DNA from: a virus
Taxonomy: Duplodnaviria > Caudoviricetes
Direction: 5' to 3' (one strand)
IMG/VR virus record: IMGVR_UViG_3300033067_000757
Coordinates: 1 to 32,708 of that record
DNA: 32,708 bases
The translations under genes and the position numbers were made by a program. This document shows positions 8,984-32,708 of the stretch, piece by piece. The notes beneath the pieces are model-generated. The model did no database searches, was not told the origin of the DNA, and was given only the letters and a program-made list of their open reading frames with translations. Within the stretch, counting starts at the first letter, position 1. The number at the start of each line of letters is the position of its first letter.

Positions 8984-9377
8984 TTATATTGTAATTCATT
9001 GCACAGCTTCGCAACCAACTGCTACTAAACAATCAATTTTAAATTACTGGAAAGATGTATTAAAATGGAAAACAGTAGGTTATCACAGGTTAATTGATGC
9101 AGCTGGAGTAATTCACGAATTAGCAAATTACGAACAGGTTACAAATGGCGTAAAGGGTTTTAATTCAGTATCAATTCATTTTAGTTATATTGGAGGCATA
9201 GACGAAAAAGGAAAGCCAAAAGATACTAGAACACCAAAACAAAAAGAAAGTTTATTATACCTAATAAAACAAGCCAAAAAACAATTCCCTAATGCAATAG
9301 TGCAAGGACATAAAGATTTTGGAGTTAATAAAGCTTGTCCAAGCTTTGAAGCTAAAAGCGAATACAAAAGTATTTAA
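8970..9377 (+). CDS. Endolysin, N-acetylmuramoyl-L-alanine amidase (Amidase_2, T7 lysozyme-like)
   Basis: IVIHCTA, GYH, SIHFSYIGG, GHKDF and KACPSF Zn-binding motifs. Confidence 0.93.
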   Translation: MRKINYIVIHCTASQPTATKQSILNYWKDVLKWKTVGYHRLIDAAGVIHELANYEQVTNGVKGFNSVSIHFSYIGGIDEKGKPKDTRTPKQKESLLYLIKQAKKQFPNAIVQGHKDFGVNKACPSFEAKSEYKSI

Positions 9378-9378
9378 T

Positions 9379-9453
9379 CAAAAAAACCCTTACAAAGTTG
9401 GCAAGGGTTTTTTCTTATTAACTAAACAAAACTATTATGAAGTAGCAAATATA
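9379..9453 (-). ncRNA. Candidate ~60-nt sRNA with its promoter
   Basis: TATATTTG box (9446-9453, minus strand) followed by CUUCAUAAUAGUUUUGUUUAGUU and the terminator; no ORF on that strand. Confidence 0.4.
9380..9413. terminator. Bidirectional intrinsic terminator
   Basis: AAAAAAACCCTT-N10-AAGGGTTTTTT just after the endolysin stop. Confidence 0.8.
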
Positions 9454-11837: not shown

Positions 11838-11878
11838 AATTATTTAGTTTTAAATGTCAAGTTTTTTCTATTGTTTAC
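11835..11878 (-). repeat. Intergenic module copy 1 (GTAAACAATAGAAAAAACTTGACATTTAAAA...ATG)
   Basis: 31-bp core (11848-11878) identical to 12527-12557. Confidence 0.9.
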
Positions 11879-11909
11879 CTGCTATCGTTATTACCGATAT
11901 TAGATAAAA

Positions 11910-11999
11910 TTATTTATTTTTAAGTTCGTTTAAAATTTGTATTAACAAATAAGTTATAAAACATATTTGTAATAATATAATTGCTAGTGTTAATTTCAT
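11910..11999 (-). CDS. 29-aa hydrophobic peptide, copy 1
   Basis: MKLTLAIILLQICFITYLLIQILNELKNK; paralog at 18253-18342. Confidence 0.65.
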   Translation of the reverse strand: MKLTLAIILLQICFITYLLIQILNELKNK

Positions 12000-12002
12000 A
12001 AT

Positions 12003-12104
12003 TTATTTATTTAATAATTTAAGTAAAAATTGTTTAAAAATTGCTATTTGATTTCTTAAATCTTTTAGCGGAATTAATTGAGGTTCAATGTTTTTTTGTC
12101 TCAT
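12003..12104 (-). CDS. Hypothetical 33-aa peptide
   Basis: MRQKNIEPQLIPLKDLRNQIAIFKQFLLKLLNK; starts at a partial copy of the repeat module (12102-12123). Confidence 0.45.
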   Translation of the reverse strand: MRQKNIEPQLIPLKDLRNQIAIFKQFLLKLLNK

Positions 12105-12117
12105 ATCTTATTTGTTT

Positions 12118-12264
12118 TTAAATTTCTGTTGCTTCTTCGATTAGTTGTTGTATTTCGTTAAGTTTATTTTTATTAATAACATAACCACTTCTTAAATTTC
12201 TTTCAAAGTCTTTTAACATTTCCAACATTTTATTATACTTTAAATCTTTTTCTTTATTTTCCAT
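12118..12264 (-). CDS. Hypothetical 48-aa protein
   Basis: MENKEKDLKYNKMLEMLKDF...IQQLIEEATEI; tightly packed between neighbours. Confidence 0.6.
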   Translation of the reverse strand: MENKEKDLKYNKMLEMLKDFERNLRSGYVINKNKLNEIQQLIEEATEI

Positions 12265-13780: not shown

Positions 13781-13953
13781 AATAATTTTAGTTTTTGTTG
13801 TTTAACTTCTTTTCCGGTATTTCTGCAAAATTCAATTTTTTGCTTTACCATTTTTAAAATTTCTAATTGCTGCGTAATTGGTATTTCGTAATACATAAAT
13901 AAAGCTATTATTTCATTTGCTTTTATATTACTGGATGTTTTTCTTTTTATCAT
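13777..13953 (-). CDS. Hypothetical 58-aa protein
   Basis: MIKRKTSSNIKANEIIALFMYYEIP...QQKLKLL; ATGA overlaps at both ends. Confidence 0.6.
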   Translation of the reverse strand: MIKRKTSSNIKANEIIALFMYYEIPITQQLEILKMVKQKIEFCRNTGKEVKQQKLKLL

Positions 13954-14210
13954 TCCGTAATGTTTTCGTAATTTTTTCTAATTACCGTTTCAACTTGGTG
14001 ACCTATTTTATTTAAATAAGTTCCTTTGCTTATTTGTTTGCTATCAAACACAGTCTCCAATAATGGCTCGAGAGCTAATTCAAATGCCTCTCCTTGCTTT
14101 ATTATTTCTTTAGCAAGTAAACTATTAGCTCTTATTTCATTTAGCTCTGTAATAAGCAAATATGTAAGCACTGCTATTTGATGCGTTTGTAAATGATGTT
14201 TTTTACTCAT
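13950..14210 (-). CDS. Hypothetical protein
   Basis: 86-aa ORF directly downstream of leader element 1. Confidence 0.7.
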   Translation of the reverse strand: MSKKHHLQTHQIAVLTYLLITELNEIRANSLLAKEIIKQGEAFELALEPLLETVFDSKQISKGTYLNKIGHQVETVIRKNYENITE

Positions 14211-14219
14211 ACTATAAAA

Positions 14220-14349
14220 ATAAAAATGCCTTCCTATTTTTGTGCAGGGTCTGAAGCTACACGCAAATAAAAAGGCTAATTTTTTTAAGTTACCTAAATT
14301 TCAGACCGTAACTACGATGCAAATATATACTTTTTTTTATATAAACAAA
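14220..14349 (-). promoter_or_regulatory. Promoter plus two-hairpin leader/attenuator, element 1
   Basis: TTTG-N18-TATATTTG (14349-14320); hairpin AGUUAC/GUAACU with loop GGUCUGAA; terminator GCCUU..AAGGC with apical loop UUCAGACC. Confidence 0.7.
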
Positions 14350-14377
14350 ATAATTTGTAAAAATATTTAAAATTTAC

Positions 14378-14620
14378 TTATAAAAAAGTTCCTAAAATTT
14401 GAATGTTTGCCAGTTTGCTATCTTCTACTGGGTTTGATTGCATAAAATTTAATGAAACTGATTGCCCGTAACATTCGCAAGTTGGGTTTCCTAAGTCATC
14501 AGTTGTAAAATTTACAAAGCCAGCTGTAACTGGTTCAAAATTTCTAAAATCTGAATGATTAAATGATGCTGAAAAAACAATAATTTTATTATCTATTGTT
14601 TTAATGTACTTTGTTGCCAT
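14378..14620 (-). CDS. Hypothetical phage protein (SAGF/CYGxSxSL type)
   Basis: 80-aa ORF; 'HSDF..PVTAGF..CYGQSVSL'. Confidence 0.7.
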   Translation of the reverse strand: MATKYIKTIDNKIIVFSASFNHSDFRNFEPVTAGFVNFTTDDLGNPTCECYGQSVSLNFMQSNPVEDSKLANIQILGTFL

Positions 14621-14652
14621 AATTTTTTATTTTAAAAGTTAATATTATTTTT

Positions 14653-15078
14653 TTATCTGCCAAAAACTAGCATAAAAGCATCTCTAGTTTCTTGGTTAGT
14701 TCTCATTTTTAATCCAGTTAATTTTTTAAAATCAATTGCGTTTATTTTTTTTCGAGTTGGTTTAATTTCTATATAATACAGCTTTAAATACTGGCACATT
14801 TCAATTATTTTATTTGCAGTTTCAAAATTTCGCCCTGTATTTTCGCCAATTTTTGAATTAAAAGCAGCTGAATAGTTTTGTTTTGTATGCCAATTTGACT
14901 TATTTAAAGACCCTTTTTCAATATAAATAGTTGGTTTCTCTTCTCGTTCTTTATAGAATTTTAGAAAATCATACAATTCAAAAAAAGTTAAATTTTTTAA
15001 AAGGTAATCATTACCATTTTTAAAACAAACACCGTTTTTATGCACATCAGGATCAATGCCAATTAAAAGTTTTCCCAT
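14653..15078 (-). CDS. RuvC-like Holliday junction resolvase/endonuclease
   Basis: IGIDP, YIE and TNQETRDA RNase-H-fold acidic motifs. Confidence 0.75.
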   Translation of the reverse strand: MGKLLIGIDPDVHKNGVCFKNGNDYLLKNLTFFELYDFLKFYKEREEKPTIYIEKGSLNKSNWHTKQNYSAAFNSKIGENTGRNFETANKIIEMCQYLKLYYIEIKPTRKKINAIDFKKLTGLKMRTNQETRDAFMLVFGR

Positions 15079-15911
15079 TACTCTAGTATTGAATTTTTAA
15101 AAGTTTCAAAATCATACATGTTTTTTTTAAGATAATTTGAGACTAAAACATTTTTACATTTATTTTTTACTAATTCAATTGGTTTACCGGATTGAATTTT
15201 TGTATTTAAATCTAAAAGCAAAGGCTTAGTTATCAAATTATTTTTTTTATTTATTTCGGTTCTTTGCTCAGTTGCATAAATTAAAAGCTGTTCGTTGTAA
15301 AGCGCTTTTTTTTCCTCCTCAGTTATTTTAATTTTTCCCGAAGTAAATAAATCATTGTAAAGTAACCAAGCGTTTTTTGAAAATTTATCGGTTTTAATTT
15401 CATCATAAAGCATTTTAATAAATTGCAATCTAATTTCTTTTTTCTCTTCAGTAGTTTTTTCGGGCATTGTATTTAGTAAATTTTGTTTTTGACTATTGTA
15501 ACCTCTTAAACTTTCGTTTCTAAAATCAATATAAGCCTGTAATACTTCGCCAATTGAAATGCAATCTAAAAGCCTAAATACTTTTATGTTTTCAAATTCT
15601 CGAGCTGCATACATTTTGAAAGCCTCTTTTATTTCCTCAATTGTTAAATTTCCAAACTTTGATTTCAAAAAATCTTTTACAACTAGCATTTGAATTTTTA
15701 AATCGTCTGCCTCTTCTTGATTTGAACATTTAATATTTAGCAAAGTAACTAAATAATTTATTAAACTATCAAATTCCTGTACATTTTGAACTTGTTTTAA
15801 TTTTGGATAGTCCTCATTGATTTTTGCTAGCAAGGGTTTCGAGTGCATCAGCTGTGCTAAAGCGAAATTGTTTTTTTGTTCCTGTATTTGTAAACTGTTG
15901 TTTTCCATCAT
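15078..15911 (-). CDS. Putative helicase loader / replication protein P-like
   Basis: Overlaps the initiator gene; 'LTIEEIKEAF..Y...IGEVLQAY'. Start taken at ATG 15911 or 15908. Confidence 0.5.
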   Translation of the reverse strand: MMENNSLQIQEQKNNFALAQLMHSKPLLAKINEDYPKLKQVQNVQEFDSLINYLVTLLNIKCSNQEEADDLKIQMLVVKDFLKSKFGNLTIEEIKEAFKMYAAREFENIKVFRLLDCISIGEVLQAYIDFRNESLRGYNSQKQNLLNTMPEKTTEEKKEIRLQFIKMLYDEIKTDKFSKNAWLLYNDLFTSGKIKITEEEKKALYNEQLLIYATEQRTEINKKNNLITKPLLLDLNTKIQSGKPIELVKNKCKNVLVSNYLKKNMYDFETFKNSILE

Positions 15912-16545
15912 TTGTGTGATTAAAATTATTTTCTTTATCGTGCCATTCCCATTTAAATCCACTCCAATTTTTTGAAACTATAAATTCTAAAATTTCATTT
16001 AAATTACAAGTTCGTTTTTCTATTTCTTTAATAAAATTATTAAATGCTGTTTGTGTGTTTGTTGCTTTTTTAGTTTTTCTAACTTTAATCCAGTCATTAA
16101 CTAAATCCTTTTGAAATCCATAATCAACTAAACAATTATAAAAAGAAAATTTTAAAGGCGTAGCCTTATTATTATTATCTATATTATTTATTTCTAATTG
16201 TTTATTGTTAATTATTAATTGTTTATTGTTAATTACTGGTAGGGGTTGCTCTTTGGGTATGGTGCCACTTACCCTAGTAGGGTATGGTATAAGGGTTTCT
16301 TTATTTTTTAAAGCTATTTTAGCATCTTCATAGCCTTTAACTTGTTTTAATAAAGAATGTTTTTGACTTAAAAAAGCAAATTTAGGCATTCCTAAAAGAA
16401 CAGGCTCAACTCCTGTAAATTGATATTCACAAATAGCTAAAAGATAATCAGATCTATCTTTGTCATTTTCAATTTCTAAAGCAATATCATAATAACTTTT
16501 ATAAAAATTAAATTGTTTTCGTTGCAAAAAAATATCTTTTGACAT
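15814..16545 (-). CDS. Replication initiator (DUF6291-like N-terminus, lambda O-type layout)
   Basis: FNFYKSYYD..LAICEYQFTG N-terminal domain; low-complexity repeat linker; C-terminal 'WIKVRKTKK...KNWSGF' domain. Confidence 0.7.
   Translation of the reverse strand: MSKDIFLQRKQFNFYKSYYDIALEIENDKDRSDYLLAICEYQFTGVEPVLLGMPKFAFLSQKHSLLKQVKGYEDAKIALKNKETLIPYPTRVSGTIPKEQPLPVINNKQLIINNKQLEINNIDNNNKATPLKFSFYNCLVDYGFQKDLVNDWIKVRKTKKATNTQTAFNNFIKEIEKRTCNLNEILEFIVSKNWSGFKWEWHDKENNFNHTNDGKQQFTNTGTKKQFRFSTADALETLASKNQ
16165..16300. repeat. Putative replication origin inside the initiator gene
   Basis: 20-bp direct repeat TAATTGTTTATTGTTAATTA at 16195 and 16216 in an AT-rich tract; GGGTATGGT at 16255 and 16280. 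Confidence 0.5.
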
Positions 16546-16547
16546 AA

Positions 16548-16769
16548 TTAAGATCCTTTCATTTTAGATTGCACATGTAATAAAGTCCCAATAAAAGAGT
16601 GTAATTCTTTTTTACTTAAATTTACAGATAAAATATTATCACAAATTTCGATAGGAAAATAAGTATATTCAATACCAATATTTACAAAATTATTATCAAG
16701 CTCTAAAATATATAAATCATATTTTGAATTTTCTTTAATTGATTCTTGTGGTGTTAAATTGTGTTTCAT
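16548..16769 (-). CDS. Hypothetical protein
   Basis: 73-aa ORF between leader element 2 and the initiator. Confidence 0.7.
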   Translation of the reverse strand: MKHNLTPQESIKENSKYDLYILELDNNFVNIGIEYTYFPIEICDNILSVNLSKKELHSFIGTLLHVQSKMKGS

Positions 16770-16787
16770 ACAAAATTATTTTAAATT

Positions 16788-16891
16788 AAAAAAGCCTTAT
16801 ATTCCTTTGGGCATCCACTCCCGCCAGAATATAAGGCAAATATTTTACTGTAGTATACTGTGGATGTTTCAACTACTTAACTGCAAATATA
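16788..16891 (-). promoter_or_regulatory. Promoter plus two-hairpin leader/attenuator, element 2
   Basis: TATATTTG (16891-16884); hairpin GUAGU/ACUAC with loop CAUCCAC; terminator GCCUUAUAUUC..GAAUAUAAGGC+U6 with apical loop GUGGAUG. Confidence 0.75.
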
Positions 16892-16903: not shown

Positions 16904-16932
16904 AAACCTACTAATAAATAGTAGGTTTTTTT
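16904..16932. terminator. Hairpin/terminator after the DUF3127 gene
   Basis: AAACCTACTA-N5-TAGTAGGTTT perfect 10-bp stem. Confidence 0.6.
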
Positions 16933-16933
16933 A

Positions 16934-17203
16934 TTAAAAATTTGTTTCAATTTTCCAAGCGTTTAAAGAGCAATACCACTTTCCGTTATAAGGATTGCCT
17001 TTTATATTAACAGATACCTTAACGGGGTTACCAAGTGCCAAATTATCTAACAAATCGCATTTGTCTTGCACAAAATCAATAGGTATTTCTTGAGAGTATT
17101 GCTCATCGGTTTTAATTACCAATAATCTTTTTTTAAAAGTTCCTTGACTACCTACTATTTCTGTGTTTCCAATATGGATTACATTTCCAATTACTTCATT
17201 CAT
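16934..17203 (-). CDS. DUF3127 family OB-fold, SSB-like protein
   Basis: FKKR..T.EQY.Q.I..DF.QDK...V.V..NIKG..YNGKWY.SL.AWKI. Confidence 0.85.
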   Translation of the reverse strand: MNEVIGNVIHIGNTEIVGSQGTFKKRLLVIKTDEQYSQEIPIDFVQDKCDLLDNLALGNPVKVSVNIKGNPYNGKWYCSLNAWKIETNF

Positions 17204-17926: not shown

Positions 17927-18220
17927 TTAAATTTTAATTATAGCTTCCAGTCTTAATGTTATTGAATAAATATCTGCTAAAATATCTTCATTGTTATACA
18001 ATAAACTTTCATAACAACTAAGCTGATTTGCTCCAGGTGTATTAATTGGCGTTTCAATTTCTTTTTCTGTGTATTCGCCGCCTAATTCTTTAGTAATTAA
18101 ATCTAGCCTTTCACAAGCTTCAAATAATTTATTAGCAAACATTTGATGTCTATAATTAAGGCTTCCTAACCAAGACTCAGCAATTTCTTTTTTTGCACTT
18201 TCTTTACATACATTTTCCAT
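17927..18220 (-). CDS. Hypothetical protein flanked by a bipartite inverted-repeat element
   Basis: 97-aa ORF; flanks at 17891-17925 and 18225-18254. Confidence 0.7.
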   Translation of the reverse strand: MENVCKESAKKEIAESWLGSLNYRHQMFANKLFEACERLDLITKELGGEYTEKEIETPINTPGANQLSCYESLLYNNEDILADIYSITLRLEAIIKI

Positions 18221-18252
18221 AATATTGGTAGCACTTATCCTTGCAATCGGTT

Positions 18253-18342
18253 TTAATTGTTTTTAAGTTGTTTTAAAATTTGTAATAATAAATAAGTATT
18301 AATACATAATTGTAATACCATAATTGATAGTGTTAATTTCAT
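18253..18342 (-). CDS. 29-aa hydrophobic peptide, copy 2
   Basis: MKLTLSIMVLQLCINTYLLLQILKQLKNN; paralog of 11910-11999. Confidence 0.65.
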   Translation of the reverse strand: MKLTLSIMVLQLCINTYLLLQILKQLKNN

Positions 18343-18383
18343 ATCTTATTTGTTTTAAATGTCAAGTTTTTTCTATAATTTAC
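18340..18383 (-). repeat. Intergenic module copy 3
   Basis: CATATCTTATTTGTTTTAAATGTCAAGTTTTTTCTA matches 12513-12549 with a 1-nt indel. Confidence 0.9.
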
Positions 18384-18393
18384 TAAAACCTTT

Positions 18394-18507
18394 TTAATAT
18401 TCAATACATCCAAACATACAAATCGGATTAATACAATACCCTCCAATAGGACATTTTTTTACAAATTTTCTAGCAAATAATTCTCTTTTTCTAAATACTT
18501 TTTTCAT
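18394..18507 (-). CDS. 37-aa basic, Cys-rich peptide
   Basis: MKKVFRKRELFARKFVKKCPIGGYCINPICMFGCIEY. Confidence 0.5.
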   Translation of the reverse strand: MKKVFRKRELFARKFVKKCPIGGYCINPICMFGCIEY

Positions 18508-18523
18508 GATTTTTTATTTAATT

Positions 18524-18595
18524 TTAATTTTCATTTCTAGTTATAACAATTAAAGCTATTATAAATAATAACATTACTGCAAAAAAATTCCACAT
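18524..18595 (-). CDS. 23-aa hydrophobic peptide
   Basis: MWNFFAVMLLFIIALIVITRNEN with an AAAATT-ATG start region. Confidence 0.4.
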   Translation of the reverse strand: MWNFFAVMLLFIIALIVITRNEN

Positions 18596-18601
18596 AATTT
18601 T

Positions 18602-21763: not shown

Positions 21764-21822
21764 AATTTTGTCTTGTCAATTTAAAAAATATAATTTTTCC
21801 CAGTATGTAGGTGCTGGGTTTT

Positions 21823-27740: not shown

Positions 27741-29884
27741 GGCTAATTATAAACGGGTTTGATATTGAACTGGAACCAGACGAAAAAATTGCTAGAACTT
27801 TACAGGTTAATGATATTTTAACTTTAAGTAATAGGCAGTCGAATTATACCAATACTTTTTCAATACGTAGAACTGATAAAAATAAGCAAACATTTGAATT
27901 ATTAGGAGTTGTTGGAATTACTTCTTTTGTACCTTACCAATTAAATGAAGTTTATCTTTATACAGATGACGGAGAGTACATAGTTCATAAAGGGCGGGCC
28001 GTGGTTCAGTCAACTGACAAAGATTATAAACTTAACCTTTACGATGGTAATATCGATTTATATAAGGCAATAGAAAATAAAAGTTTGGGCGATTTAAACT
28101 TGTCAGAAATTGACCATATTAAAACGCTAGCTACTGTTGTAAATACTTTTACAGCTAATTTGAATTATAAATATTTAATTGCGGATTATAACGGTAAAAT
28201 GATTTATAACACCAATAGAATTAATATTGATTATTTAGTACCGAGTGCAAAAGTTAGTTATTTATGGAATAAGATTTTTAGTGAGTTTGGTTTTACATAC
28301 AGTGGCTCAGTATTTAATACTGTCGATTTTACAAACCTTTGGTTATCATTTCCAAAAGTTAGTCCTCCACAAGGTGCGCCTATTACCGTATTAAACACTA
28401 TAACTACAACTGTAACAGACCAAGCTCCACCACAAATAAATTATGTAGTTACGCAAACGGGAACTTATTTTTTTACAATAGCTGATTATTCGACTGGTTC
28501 GGCTTATGCTGACATTTGGAATCAAAACGGCTATACTGGAAACACTTATACGCTTAATAATAGAATTTTTGTTAATGGTGTTTTAGCTTTGACTGATATT
28601 ATTGAATTACAAATTGGCGATGTAATAACTACTGATTATATTTTTGAAGAAACGTTAAATTTAGGTGAGTATTATTATGAAACTTATGTAGGTGATTTTC
28701 AATATGAATTTATTTTAGAATTTTATCAAGGTCAAATTATTAGTTTTTCAAACGAGCTAAAAGATTTTAGCATTAAAGATTTTATAACTGAAATACTTAA
28801 TCGTTTTGGCTTAACACCATTCAAAGACAAATATACAAATCATTATAAATTTTTAACATTACAGGAACTTTTACAAAATAACCAAGTAATTGACTGGAGC
28901 CGAAAACAGAATAAGTTTGTAGAAAAGATTTCAGAGCGTTACATTTTTGGAAGCTATGCACAGAAAAACAATTTCACTTACAAATACAACGACCCTGAAA
29001 GCGATTACTACAACAGCGATATTTTAATAAACAACATAAACCTTGCCGATGCAAAAACGGTTGTTAATTCCAAAGTATATGCACCTGAAAAAGACAGAAC
29101 TATTTTAATACACAATTTACAAACTAACGTTTATAAAATGTGGAATAAAGAAGTCAAAGATAACGGAACTGTAGAATATAGAGCTTTACAAAAAAGATAC
29201 TATTTTTTACGTGAAGCATCGCATACTTTTACAACTACAACACAAATAGGAAGTGAAACAGCTGGTTTGCATCAAGATATTACAACCGTACCAGTCGAAA
29301 GTTTTTATAATTTACGAATGGAAGACGTTATAAGAAATTACTACGGTAATATTGGCGCCATTTTAAACTATTCAAAAATTATTGACGCAACTATTTACCT
29401 AAATGAAACCGATATAGCAAATATTGACTTTAGTAAATTATATTGGATTAAGGAATTATCTAGCTATTTTATTTTAAACAAAGTAAATAATTTTATAAAA
29501 AAAGGAATTACAAAAGTAGAACTTATAAAAGTAGATTATGCAGCACCAAACAATGACCCTATAAATGTAGAAGATAACGGCTTTCAATTATTAATTGATA
29601 TTGTAAAGGGCGTTATACCTAGGTTACATTTTGGTTTTAATCAAAGAGATATTACAGCAAGGGAAAATGAAGTAATAACAATTTATCAAGATACGGTTTA
29701 TAATGCAAATGAGTATTTTGTACCTTTAGTAACTGCAATTGGAGGAAAAGTTACTAGGGCAGATTTAAACATAATAGAGGTTTCATTTGCAACTAGCGGA
29801 AATTATAATTTAAGCGCTACAGTAGCAAATAATGACCGTACAATAGAATTAGAATCTAACGTTTTAAACATAACAATAATATAA
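27737..29884 (+). CDS. Tail hub/baseplate (Tal-like) protein
   Basis: 715 aa; N-terminal 'Q.NDI..L.NRQSNYTNTF', 'IDWS.K' and 'YAQKN.F.Y' motifs. Confidence 0.65.
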   Translation: MRLIINGFDIELEPDEKIARTLQVNDILTLSNRQSNYTNTFSIRRTDKNKQTFELLGVVGITSFVPYQLNEVYLYTDDGEYIVHKGRAVVQSTDKDYKLNLYDGNIDLYKAIENKSLGDLNLSEIDHIKTLATVVNTFTANLNYKYLIADYNGKMIYNTNRINIDYLVPSAKVSYLWNKIFSEFGFTYSGSVFNTVDFTNLWLSFPKVSPPQGAPITVLNTITTTVTDQAPPQINYVVTQTGTYFFTIADYSTGSAYADIWNQNGYTGNTYTLNNRIFVNGVLALTDIIELQIGDVITTDYIFEETLNLGEYYYETYVGDFQYEFILEFYQGQIISFSNELKDFSIKDFITEILNRFGLTPFKDKYTNHYKFLTLQELLQNNQVIDWSRKQNKFVEKISERYIFGSYAQKNNFTYKYNDPESDYYNSDILINNINLADAKTVVNSKVYAPEKDRTILIHNLQTNVYKMWNKEVKDNGTVEYRALQKRYYFLREASHTFTTTTQIGSETAGLHQDITTVPVESFYNLRMEDVIRNYYGNIGAILNYSKIIDATIYLNETDIANIDFSKLYWIKELSSYFILNKVNNFIKKGITKVELIKVDYAAPNNDPINVEDNGFQLLIDIVKGVIPRLHFGFNQRDITARENEVITIYQDTVYNANEYFVPLVTAIGGKVTRADLNIIEVSFATSGNYNLSATVANNDRTIELESNVLNITII

Positions 29885-32708
29885 TGGCAAAAGTAGTAAT
29901 CGCAGAACTGGAAATTGACATCACTGCACTTTTAAAATCAACTTCGGATTTAAAAAAAGAAATTGATGCGCTTAAAAATACACAAAAAGATTTAGCCGCT
30001 TCAGGCGATAAGTCAAGCGAAGCATTTGTTGCAAACGAGGCAGTTTTAAAATCGTTAAATAGTGCCTATGCTTCAAATGTAAAAGTAATACAGGAAAGTG
30101 GAAAAGCAACAGCAACACAAGCAGACCAATCAGAACTTTTATCTTTAGCATTAAGTCAAGAAGCTACTAGTATAGCTGAAGCGCGTCAACAAAACCAATT
30201 ACTAAATAAAATGCGTAATGAAACAAACGTTTCTACTGTTGAAGGAAAAGCACAACTAGAAGCGTTAAATGCTAAATTGGATGAAAATAATAATTTTATA
30301 AAAGCAAATGGCGATCAATATTTGCAACAAAAAATTAACATAGGTAATTACAAGGAAGGTATAAAAGAAGCTTTTCAAGAAATGAATATCTTTAATGGTG
30401 GTATTGGTGGCTTTATACAACGTAGTCAAGAAGCCGGAGGAGTAACAAATCTTTTATCTAATTCATTTGGTGGAATGATACAAGGTATAATGGGAATTAC
30501 TAGGGCTTCACTTGCTTTTATTGCTACGCCAATCGGTGCCGTTATTGCTGCAATTGGCTTAGTAGTTGGCGCCCTAGTGAACTATTTAAAATCTTCCCAA
30601 GAAGGTATAGATGCAGTTACATCAGTAACAAGACCATTACAAGCTATTATGTCATCTTTAATAGGTGTATTGCAAAACGTAGGGAAGTTTTTATTTGAAG
30701 CGTTTAGCAATCCTAAAAAAACGCTTACTGAATTATATGATTTTGTTAAACAAAATTTAATTAATCGATTTACAGCGTTTGGCAAAATATTAGAAGGTAT
30801 TATTGAATTGGATTTTAAAAAAGTTACAAATGGAGTTTTACAAGCTGGTACGGGTGTTGAAAATTTAACTAGTAAAATTCAAAACGGAGCGAAGGCAACG
30901 GGTAAGTTTTTAGACGAAGCAATTAAAAAAGGACAGGAAATTGACGCACTTAAAAAACAAATTGAACGTAGCGAGCTGGCATATCAAAGACAACAAATTA
31001 AAACCAACGATTTAATTGACCAGCAACTATTAATATCAAAAGACACATCTAAGTCTTTTTCTGAACGTGCTGCTGCATCAAATGAAATTATACGACTTAC
31101 AACAGAACTTTCTAAAAAAGAAGAGGAAATTATACAAAAGAAAATTAAGGCTTTGCAATTAGAGTACTCAATGAAAGATGCAAAATCTATCACTATTGCA
31201 GAACAACAAAAATTAATTGATTTAGAAAAGCAGCTAGATGAAGCGCAAGATAGAGGTTTAAACGCTCGTTTAGAACAAACTAAAGTATTATCGGGTTTAA
31301 AAAAAGAACAGGAAGCGCAAGCAAAAGAAGCTCAAGCTAAAGAACTTGAAAGACAAAACAAAGCTATTGAAGCGCAACTAACAAAATCACGTCAAGAAAT
31401 TGAATTGTTTAAGGTAAAAGAAAGTGAAAAATCTAAAACAGCCGAGCAACAATACCAGTTTAATAAACAAATTTATGATAAAGAAAATGCTGATTTAAAA
31501 CTTCAATACGATAAAGGTAAAATATCAAAATTACAATACGAAACAGATAAATTAAAATTGTCTCAAACATTTGCGCAACAAAACGCAGATACGCTTTTGC
31601 AATTTGCAAACGCTGAATTAAATTTATTTTTAGAAAATAACAAATCAAAACTAGCCGGGGCGCAAATTTTAACAGATGAACTAGTAAAAGAAGAGGAAAA
31701 AAGGTTACAATTAATTGACCAAAAAAGAATTGAAAATTTAGCAAAAGAAAAGGAAATTGACGTTGCTAAATTAGAAGCTAAAAAATTAAATAATGAAGCC
31801 TTAACAGTTGCGGAAATAGAATTCGAAACTGAAAGAATAAAAATTTCAAGCGAAACAGATAACACTATACAAGCCAATAAAAAAACTTTAGAAGAGCAAA
31901 TTAAGGCCCAAAAAGCTGAACAGTTAGCAATTGATAACGAGTTGGCCTTAGCTGAAGCCCAAACAAAAGCGGAAGAGGAAGCCGTAAAAGCAGAACAGCA
32001 ATATCAGTTAGAAATGCAAAGGCTTAATAAATTGCTTACTGATAAGAAAATTACTCAAGACCAATTTGATGCATTAAAGGCAAGCGCTGATAAGAAAAAA
32101 GAAGAGAACGAAAAAATAGCTTCTTTAAATAGAACTACAGCAACTTTACAAGAAATGGGTAAAGTAACCGCAGGACTTGAATCTATGTTTGGAAAAAACA
32201 AAGCTATTGCTTCTGCAACTGCTTTAATAAACGGAGGATTAGCTGTAACTGAAATTTTAAAAACTCCTTCAGTATTACCAGAGCCAGCGGCTTCAATTTC
32301 AAGAGCTATTCAAATTGGTGGAACTATTGCAACAACAGCAAGAAGTATATCACAAATTAACTCAGCTAAATTTGAAAAAGGAGGTATTCAAGAAATTGGC
32401 GGTAAACGTCATAGCGCTGGAGGTACTAAATTTTGGGGAGAAGACGGTACACGTTTTGAAGCTGAAGCAGGCGAGGGAATTGGAATATTAAACCGAAATG
32501 CGTTTGCGTCTTTTATGGACTTTAACAACTCACATAGTAGCGGTCGAAGTAACGGAGGTTTCTTTGCTGGTGGTGGAATTATTACGCAAGGTGTACGCCC
32601 TGAAACTTTAAACATTGACAACGTTGTAGACGCAATAGCGAGTATACCTGCTCCTGTAGTTGCAGTTGAAGAAATTCAAACCGTAGGTAACAGATACGCT
32701 ACAGTTGT
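29884..32708 (+). CDS. Tape measure protein (allele B; runs off the 3' edge, about 947 aa if completed with 1148-1166)
   Basis: ATG 29884; long open frame with coiled coils, 'KINIGNY' and the hydrophobic 'AFIATPIGAVIAAIGLVVGALV'. Absent from the ORF track because it has no stop in the window. Confidence 0.88.
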   Translation, partial: MAKVVIAELEIDITALLKSTSDLKKEIDALKNTQKDLAASGDKSSEAFVANEAVLKSLNSAYASNVKVIQESGKATATQADQSELLSLALSQEATSIAEARQQNQLLNKMRNETNVSTVEGKAQLEALNAKLDENNNFIKANGDQYLQQKINIGNYKEGIKEAFQEMNIFNGGIGGFIQRSQEAGGVTNLLSNSFGGMIQGIMGITRASLAFIATPIGAVIAAIGLVVGALVNYLKSSQEGIDAVTSVTRPLQAIMSSLIGVLQNVGKFLFEAFSNPKKTLTELYDFVKQNLINRFTAFGKILEGIIELDFKKVTNGVLQAGTGVENLTSKIQNGAKATGKFLDEAIKKGQEIDALKKQIERSELAYQRQQIKTNDLIDQQLLISKDTSKSFSERAAASNEIIRLTTELSKKEEEIIQKKIKALQLEYSMKDAKSITIAEQQKLIDLEKQLDEAQDRGLNARLEQTKVLSGLKKEQEAQAKEAQAKELERQNKAIEAQLTKSRQEIELFKVKESEKSKTAEQQYQFNKQIYDKENADLKLQYDKGKISKLQYETDKLKLSQTFAQQNADTLLQFANAELNLFLENNKSKLAGAQILTDELVKEEEKRLQLIDQKRIENLAKEKEIDVAKLEAKKLNNEALTVAEIEFETERIKISSETDNTIQANKKTLEEQIKAQKAEQLAIDNELALAEAQTKAEEEAVKAEQQYQLEMQRLNKLLTDKKITQDQFDALKASADKKKEENEKIASLNRTTATLQEMGKVTAGLESMFGKNKAIASATALINGGLAVTEILKTPSVLPEPAASISRAIQIGGTIATTARSISQINSAKFEKGGIQEIGGKRHSAGGTKFWGEDGTRFEAEAGEGIGILNRNAFASFMDFNNSHSSGRSNGGFFAGGGIITQGVRPETLNIDNVVDAIASIPAPVVAVEEIQTVGNRYATV
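31571..32708 (+). repeat. Imperfect terminal direct repeat, right copy
   Basis: See 1-1147. Confidence 0.97.

Follow-up and report, generated by a model that had tools for sequence, protein, structure and literature searches.

Two kissing-loop leader RNAs of a Flavobacterium-type phage and the Bacteroidota-phage RNA family to which they belong

The window, by which the whole stretch of DNA analysed here is meant, is a linear virus record of 32.7 kb (29.8% GC, CheckV completeness 86%) from a Flavobacterium-type phage. Genes for a terminase, a portal protein, a Clp-type protease, an amidase, RecT, an SSB (protein binding single-stranded DNA), a replication initiator and a resolvase were recognised, and the relatives of the window include cultured Flavobacterium phages. 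Two intergenic elements on its minus strand, E1 and E2, belong to one widespread Bacteroidota-phage RNA family of kissing-loop leaders, in which the loop of a 5' hairpin (P1) is complementary to the loop of a long, terminator-like hairpin (P2). Both had been proposed in a sequence-only reading of the window and were found at the positions and with the architecture that it described, including an exact loop-loop complementarity of 8 nt in E1 (GGUCUGAA/UUCAGACC) and 7 nt in E2 (CAUCCAC/GUGGAUG); the P1 half is called the key (L1) and the P2 half the anti-key (L2). A further motif of that reading, GUAGUU, is merely the 5' arm of P1 and varies across the family. The two elements consist of the following features:

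14320..14327, minus strand: E1 Bacteroidota sigma-A -7 box TATATTTG, with a TTG-type -33 element upstream
about 14315, minus strand: E1 predicted transcription start, from the box position
14288..14313, minus strand: E1 hairpin P1, arms AGUUAC/GUAACU, 6 bp, 14-nt loop, from folding and covariation
14300..14307, minus strand: E1 key (L1) GGUCUGAA, 8 nt, in the P1 loop
14277..14287, minus strand: E1 A-rich linker, 11 nt
14228..14276, minus strand: E1 hairpin P2, 18 bp, terminator-like, GCCUU/AAGGC closure, from folding and covariation
14248..14255, minus strand: E1 anti-key (L2) UUCAGACC, in the P2 loop
14216..14227, minus strand: E1 U-tract, kept in homologues collected without a U-tract criterion
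13950..14210, minus strand: hypothetical 86-aa open reading frame (ORF), ATG at 14210, the first gene behind E1
16884..16891, minus strand: E2 sigma-A -7 box TATATTTG
about 16879-16878, minus strand: E2 predicted transcription start, from the box position
16850..16876, minus strand: E2 hairpin P1, arms GUAGU/ACUAC, 5 bp, 17-nt loop
16860..16866, minus strand: E2 key (L1) CAUCCAC
16838..16849, minus strand: E2 A-rich linker, 12 nt
16794..16837, minus strand: E2 hairpin P2, 15 bp, terminator-like, from folding
16812..16818, minus strand: E2 anti-key (L2) GUGGAUG
16783..16793, minus strand: E2 U-tract
16548..16769, minus strand: hypothetical 73-aa ORF, ATG at 16769, the first gene behind E2

In Flavobacterium, the TAnnTTTG box sits at -12 to -5 relative to the start site (PMC9723704). 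This spacing places the predicted starts at about 14315 and 16878, and the predicted transcripts begin within a few bases of P1 and are ~95 nt long at the U-tract. Folding z-scores of P2 are -4.2 for E1 and -3.7 for E2; P1 alone folds weakly (z about 0) and draws its support from covariation. A simple terminator scan of the window did not list either P2, as such long stems exceed its range. Each key is present in the window solely as its two partner halves. Since the 7-mer of E2 is not rare on its own (at least two matches in 24 of 100 shuffles), significance rests on homologues.

Family members are laid out as a sigma-A box, P1, an A-rich linker, P2, a U-tract and a gene. A covariance model built from 19 sequences with E2 excluded and no loop-loop pair modelled, detects E2 with 50 bits (E=1.7e-6), which places E1 and E2 in one family. 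Using blastn, an E1 homologue was located ahead of the helicase gene of phage hattifnatt9-1, where the key and its partner read GCUUCGAC/GUCGAAGC. A pattern describing only the linker matched 23 viral loci, of which 13 are true elements and 10 are unrelated; each of the 12 complete elements has a complementary loop pair as well as AGGC followed by a U-run, neither of which is part of the pattern. A descriptor free of any loop criterion, run on 267 loci plus the window, yielded 40 elements, a redundant set in which 13 share one key family. Their loops are complementary over at least 6 bp in 39 of 40 cases and over at least 7 bp in 37 of 40; for at least 6 bp, the control rates were 37 of 1330 for cross-key pairs and 5.8% for shuffled loops. 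In the 19-sequence alignment, which was hand-picked after inspection of the sequences, 92.7% of the cells of the 8-bp kissing helix are paired, compared with 20-43% when the strands are slid, and seven of the eight pairs show double changes, bearing out the covariation that had been suspected from the two loops of the window. P1 and P2 covary in the same alignment, with many G-U pairs in P2; counting was done with shuffle and slide controls, which correct only partly for phylogeny. The box, both hairpins, the U-tract and the covariation of all three helices recur across phages.

Two further searches extended the set. A general descriptor without a key criterion returned 36 candidates in 24 phage records, 26 of them with a key. 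A key-based search of 27 records (785 kb), with no criterion for a U-tract or start codon, gave 39 hits versus 7 on reversed sequence, and 36 of these 39 have at least six T in the next 10 nt. The later counts refer to 33 elements (31 distinct P2), after removal of four false-looking hits and two hits from one near-duplicate genome. These carry 33 different key strings, the strongest bias being an A at the second-last key position (21/33). Within one lineage, keys change stepwise with compensation (GUGAGACG, GUGAGAAG, GUGGAACG), the pattern expected from drift. Cultured members include Flavobacterium and Cellulophaga phages, and in Cellulophaga phage phi19:1 the element precedes the primase block. 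In host chromosomes, 7 of 401 Flavobacterium-genus genomes matched versus 12 control matches, i.e. the control level; three true elements occurred among the host-genome matches, all on short contigs of 4-35 kb. Two relatives of the initiator, G001 and G002, had no element. The first viral pattern was rejected as too loose, with ~13,000 estimated stretches and one true element among ten full-promoter-box matches, and the sole hit of the R1 search in Chryseobacterium was an ordinary terminator.

None of the queries submitted to Rfam 15 (the window, E1, E2 and nine homologous loci) came near a gathering score, in line with the failure of the sequence-only reading to recognise a named family. In the searched literature, where subscription papers were sparsely covered, no title or abstract was found that describes this family. 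The family is new to catalogues, though an unnamed overlap with the 8,495 viral csRNA candidates from IMG/VR of Fremin 2023, with which it was not compared, is possible (PMC10690425). Three loci with related designs were also recorded. A variant at L136 (2162-2300, key GCAUCAC) has an additional palindromic hairpin within its linker. At L425 (8158-8301), a GenBank hypothetical protein, morran9-1 gp042, is annotated across an element of the C-type lineage and is probably a spurious gene call on the RNA. L265 (about 262-384 of IMGVR_UViG_3300006037_000587) is similar in design, with a TACAAT-type -10 box and a weak R1 score. It has a long GCCUU/AAGGC hairpin, a U-tract and a Shine-Dalgarno-like site, and the tip region of the hairpin is matched by a complementary 5' end (GCCAAAACC); the design hints at a parallel element outside Bacteroidota.

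Element-bearing genomes hold one to three copies, and the downstream gene always starts 10-52 nt behind the element. The first genes of 30 distinct cases comprise four helicases, five HNH/EndoVII nucleases and three initiator or primosomal proteins assigned by PHROG, together with one additional initiator relative and one T5orf172 protein, the remainder being without assignment; 5 of the 30 belong to a small-ORF family that heads primase blocks in annotated phages. The leader likely sets the flow of transcription into DNA-replication and nuclease genes. The surroundings of E2 in the window are as follows:

16934..17203, minus strand: DUF3127 single-stranded DNA binding protein, directly upstream of E2
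16904..16928, terminator-like on both strands: inverted repeat that separates the SSB gene from the E2 promoter and shares bases with its -33 region
15814..16545, minus strand: replication initiator (O-like/primosomal), phrog_6451 (3.5e-21) and phrog_678 (2e-16)
15078..15962, minus strand: 294-aa ORF in the usual helicase-loader position, without a functional match
14653..15078, minus strand: Holliday junction resolvase, phrog_1770 (3e-17)

E2 had been described as gating initiator, loader and resolvase genes. The initiator and the resolvase stand and E2 does head the initiator block, but the first gene behind it is the hypothetical 73-aa ORF, and the supposed loader has no functional match. 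Of the 33 elements, 12 have an SSB homologue no more than 1.5 kb upstream, and a hairpin reaching into the -33 region usually comes after it. The inverted repeat of the window (AACCT...AGGTT) is kept at the same position in G003, G004, G006 and G008-G011, and may serve as an operator, as a terminator in both directions, or in both roles.

The cassette is mobile. The 86-aa gene is also found together with E1-like leaders that carry other keys; elsewhere it follows inserted helicase or methylase genes, or no leader adjoins it. G003, an uncultured close relative that is 97% complete and most of whose proteins match the window at ~80-99%, carries elements with different keys at both equivalent sites; the near-identity of its sequence to the window ends at the E2 promoter box, beyond which both the element lineage and the initiator are different ones. 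One element is 100% identical in 34 records (25 GenBank, 9 RefSeq duplicates) of Flavobacterium LMO6/LMO9 phages, which include members of Hattifnattvirus and Muminvirus and all come from the same two host strains.

The distance between key and anti-key is 44 +/- 3 nt, and it is reached by two geometries. In the first (17 elements), the key abuts the 3' strand of P1 and the linker measures 16-27 nt; in the second (14 elements, including E1 and E2), the key is followed by a spacer of 4-9 nt and the linker measures 7-15 nt, so that the two linker ranges do not overlap. Linker length compensating for the geometry of the P1 loop points to a kiss within one molecule, as would be expected if the loops have to meet there, with the qualification that the lineages are not independent. 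No third copy of a key turned up in the window, and none of the 37 elements with keys of at least 7 nt has a full one in the 400 nt that follow it. Nor was a conserved antisense promoter detected: opposite-strand TAnnTTTG boxes lie near 6 of the 33 elements, scattered and against a background of 1.08 per kb. Keys differ within each of the eight genomes with two or three elements, yet this orthogonality is at chance in a test of low power (1 cross-reactive key pair observed versus 2.6 expected, P=0.31).

P2 has the features of an intrinsic terminator, being closed by G-C pairs and followed at once by a U-rich tract. At least seven T among the nine positions after P2 were counted in 23 of 31 elements, versus 0 of 35 other window genes at -18 to -10. 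In the C-type lineage the start codon is mostly 45-52 nt away, which assigns the U-run to the hairpin. The sense strand gives the better fold of P2 in 27 of 31 cases and this, together with the many G-U pairs, argues that P2 acts as RNA on that strand. Because P2 resembles an intrinsic terminator, the gene behind it would be made only through read-through or weak termination. Folding snapshots in a nested model have the key pairing as the lowest-energy state until the 3' arm of P2 is largely made, after which complete P2 wins by 7-12 kcal/mol in this nested approximation.

With about even confidence, each element is read here as a promoter-proximal leader of ~95 nt that likely serves as a ligand-free cis attenuator and passes part of transcription. 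RNA polymerase would start just before P1, and the P2 loop, emerging ~44 nt after the key, could pair with it before the 3' arm of P2 exists. Held together by the short A-rich linker, the kissed form would make it harder for the G-C base of P2 to close and so permit read-through; should P2 zip up earlier, transcription would end at the U-tract with release of a ~95-nt RNA. Polymerase speed, Mg2+, temperature or a protein would decide between the two outcomes rather than a metabolite, the latter being unlikely because the loops lack conserved residues and the kiss rests on 6-9 Watson-Crick pairs alone. Such a cassette would set the dose of genes whose excess is costly (those of initiators, helicases, primases and HNH nucleases), and its keys would diverge through compensatory drift and not as addresses. 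Several points weigh against this attenuator. The geometry fits either sign of the effect, as the linker lengths would also suit a relaxed state with both hairpins complete and kissed, and some U-tracts are interrupted (AUUAACUUUU in G003 and G011). No trigger was identified, and a weaker promoter could give a fixed leak equally. Finally, the lineages are limited in number (roughly a dozen by eye), which makes the correlations less independent than their p-values suggest.

A less probable but serious alternative is that the kiss is structural, locking the leader or a released small RNA in a compact, nuclease-resistant fold or stabilising the terminator, with read-through set by the U-tract alone. 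Such a role would agree with the absence of conserved ligand-type loop residues, with a linker that compensates for the P1-loop geometry and lets the key reach the top of complete P2, and with P1 beginning only a few bases into the predicted transcript, the place for a protective cap. However, the gene always follows at close range, as with cis regulators, and in the one studied RNA of the same topology, guanidine-IV, the complete terminator disfavours the kiss.

That same loss of the kiss in the full terminator would free both loops, and it is one reason to consider a self-counting attenuator, in which released ~95-nt RNAs, their loops still free, bind nascent leaders carrying the same key in trans and block the cis kiss, each operon shutting down as genome copies or co-infecting genomes accumulate. 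The fixed ~44-nt gap would provide a time window for this, the controlled genes are replication and nuclease genes, and keys differ within all eight multi-element genomes; that difference is not beyond chance, however, and an intramolecular partner should outcompete one in trans. The scheme is improbable on balance, and a mobile ligand-free attenuator whose terminated product feeds back in trans on same-key leaders is held to be equally doubtful. If it were true, genome copy number would be counted by an RNA private to each replication or nuclease operon, and nature would offer in this family a set of orthogonal transcription switches that can be reprogrammed.

In a further unlikely reading, read-through is turned on by a phage or host protein that docks on the kissed fold, either an antiterminator or the SSB encoded next to it. 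Conservation of the A-rich linker and of the GCCU/AGGC base within one subfamily would fit, as would the SSB homologue upstream of 12 of the 33 elements. Against this, P2 base sequences differ between subfamilies, the cassettes move with unrelated genes, and neither the window nor the scanned ORFs of G003 yielded a recognisable antiterminator. Lastly, the proposal of the sequence-only reading that the loops are element-specific addresses defining immunity groups in place of a CI repressor, as in P4 CI or P1 c4, is very unlikely: although no CI was recognised among the window genes, as that reading had noted, and G003 differs in its keys at both sites, the occurrence of an unchanged element in 34 records from phages that share two host strains argues against immunity groups, key orthogonality is at chance, a third key copy is missing and antisense boxes are at background, host chromosomes do not exceed the control, and with no integrase recognised in the window and no integrase or repressor in any of nine scanned G003 ORFs (out of 17 without a window match), there may be no lysogenic state to protect.

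Outside the two leaders, other features of the window were noted. A long tape-measure-like ORF exits the right end and an open frame enters the left end (1-1166, 29884-32708); with open frames at both ends, the contig may be circularly permuted and nearly a whole genome. Positions 9372-9453 (minus strand) hold a promoter box, a short transcript and a terminator hairpin without a kissing key, convergent on the lysis genes; similar stretches are present in G007 and G009-G011, and a small or antisense RNA is possible. The intergenic regions 18220-18600 and 11840-12120 (minus strand) have repeated blocks in common (AAAAAACTTGACATTTAAAAC, ACAAATAAGATATGA) as well as a short frame beginning ATGAAATTAACACT, and are probably recombination-prone small-gene cassettes. 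Between two small ORFs, a terminator-like hairpin at 21799-21818 (plus strand) occupies the strand opposite the early genes.

The leaders are a common, uncatalogued regulatory RNA of Bacteroidota phages, and their occurrence in cultured Flavobacterium and Cellulophaga phages makes direct testing possible. Dozens of natural keys and two natural geometries are suited to testing a steric model. If cis attenuation holds, phages without a recognisable repressor would have a means of dosing their replication and homing-nuclease genes, and Bacteroidota genetics could gain tunable parts.

RNA-only control of replication genes or of read-through is known from pT181 attenuation, the ColIb-P9/IncB pseudoknot and HK022 put. 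Both pT181 and ColIb-P9/IncB need an antisense RNA from an opposing promoter, and the phage elements differ from these plasmid systems in having no conserved opposing promoter. The HK022 put RNAs are two adjacent polymerase-binding hairpins that are not known to form a loop-loop helix. P1 c4 represents the same type of antisense leader attenuation as P4 CI. Like P4 CI/seqA-seqC, the phage elements are phage leaders with complementary loops ahead of replication genes and, as inferred, premature termination (PMC4825925). P4 CI, as described there, needs a processed antisense RNA acting in trans and a second downstream target; the phage elements are without a third key copy and, unlike P4 CI, their terminator hairpin itself carries the complementary loop. 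The 5' intrinsic terminators of T4 mobE and segF are similar in that they act as partial terminators close to where homing-endonuclease genes begin and limit the transcript, with about 30% termination at mobE, but they are described as simple hairpins inside the coding region that lack a dedicated promoter, a 5' hairpin and a kiss (PMC2988022). In tug-of-war antitermination, an upstream structure likewise suppresses a terminator without sharing stem sequence (bioRxiv 10.64898/2026.06.17.733018). That mechanism, as reported, needs a very short spacer and involves no loop-loop contact, whereas the phage linkers span 7-27 nt and the terminator loop would be engaged directly.

The closest likeness is to guanidine-IV (GGAM-1/mepA motif), where a flexible linker likewise joins a 5' hairpin to an intrinsic terminator in leader position and the loops of the two pair with each other. 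There, the kissing loop hinders the full terminator and declines as P2 lengthens, i.e. the kiss competes with terminator closure, and the phage elements may by analogy behave alike (PMC7736828, PMC11611296). Differences are found in the loops, the genes and the hosts. Guanidine-IV binds guanidine and has loop nucleotides with 97% conservation; the phage loops are freely variable Watson-Crick keys of 6-9 bp, and no conserved ligand-pocket nucleotides appear among the 33 key strings. Guanidine-IV mostly precedes sugE, in contrast to the phage elements, which precede DNA-metabolism genes, none of those identified being sugE or guanidine-related; and the lineages listed for guanidine-IV exclude Bacteroidetes, while the phage elements come from Bacteroidota phages. 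No Rfam 15 family matched at cut-off, the presence of a guanidine-IV model in that release being unconfirmed. By the features compared, the phage elements stand outside guanidine-IV, P4 CI and the antisense plasmid systems but probably work like guanidine-IV. If the kiss does control termination, the kissing-loop antitermination that has been proposed for guanidine-IV would extend to a ligand-free, sequence-independent form.

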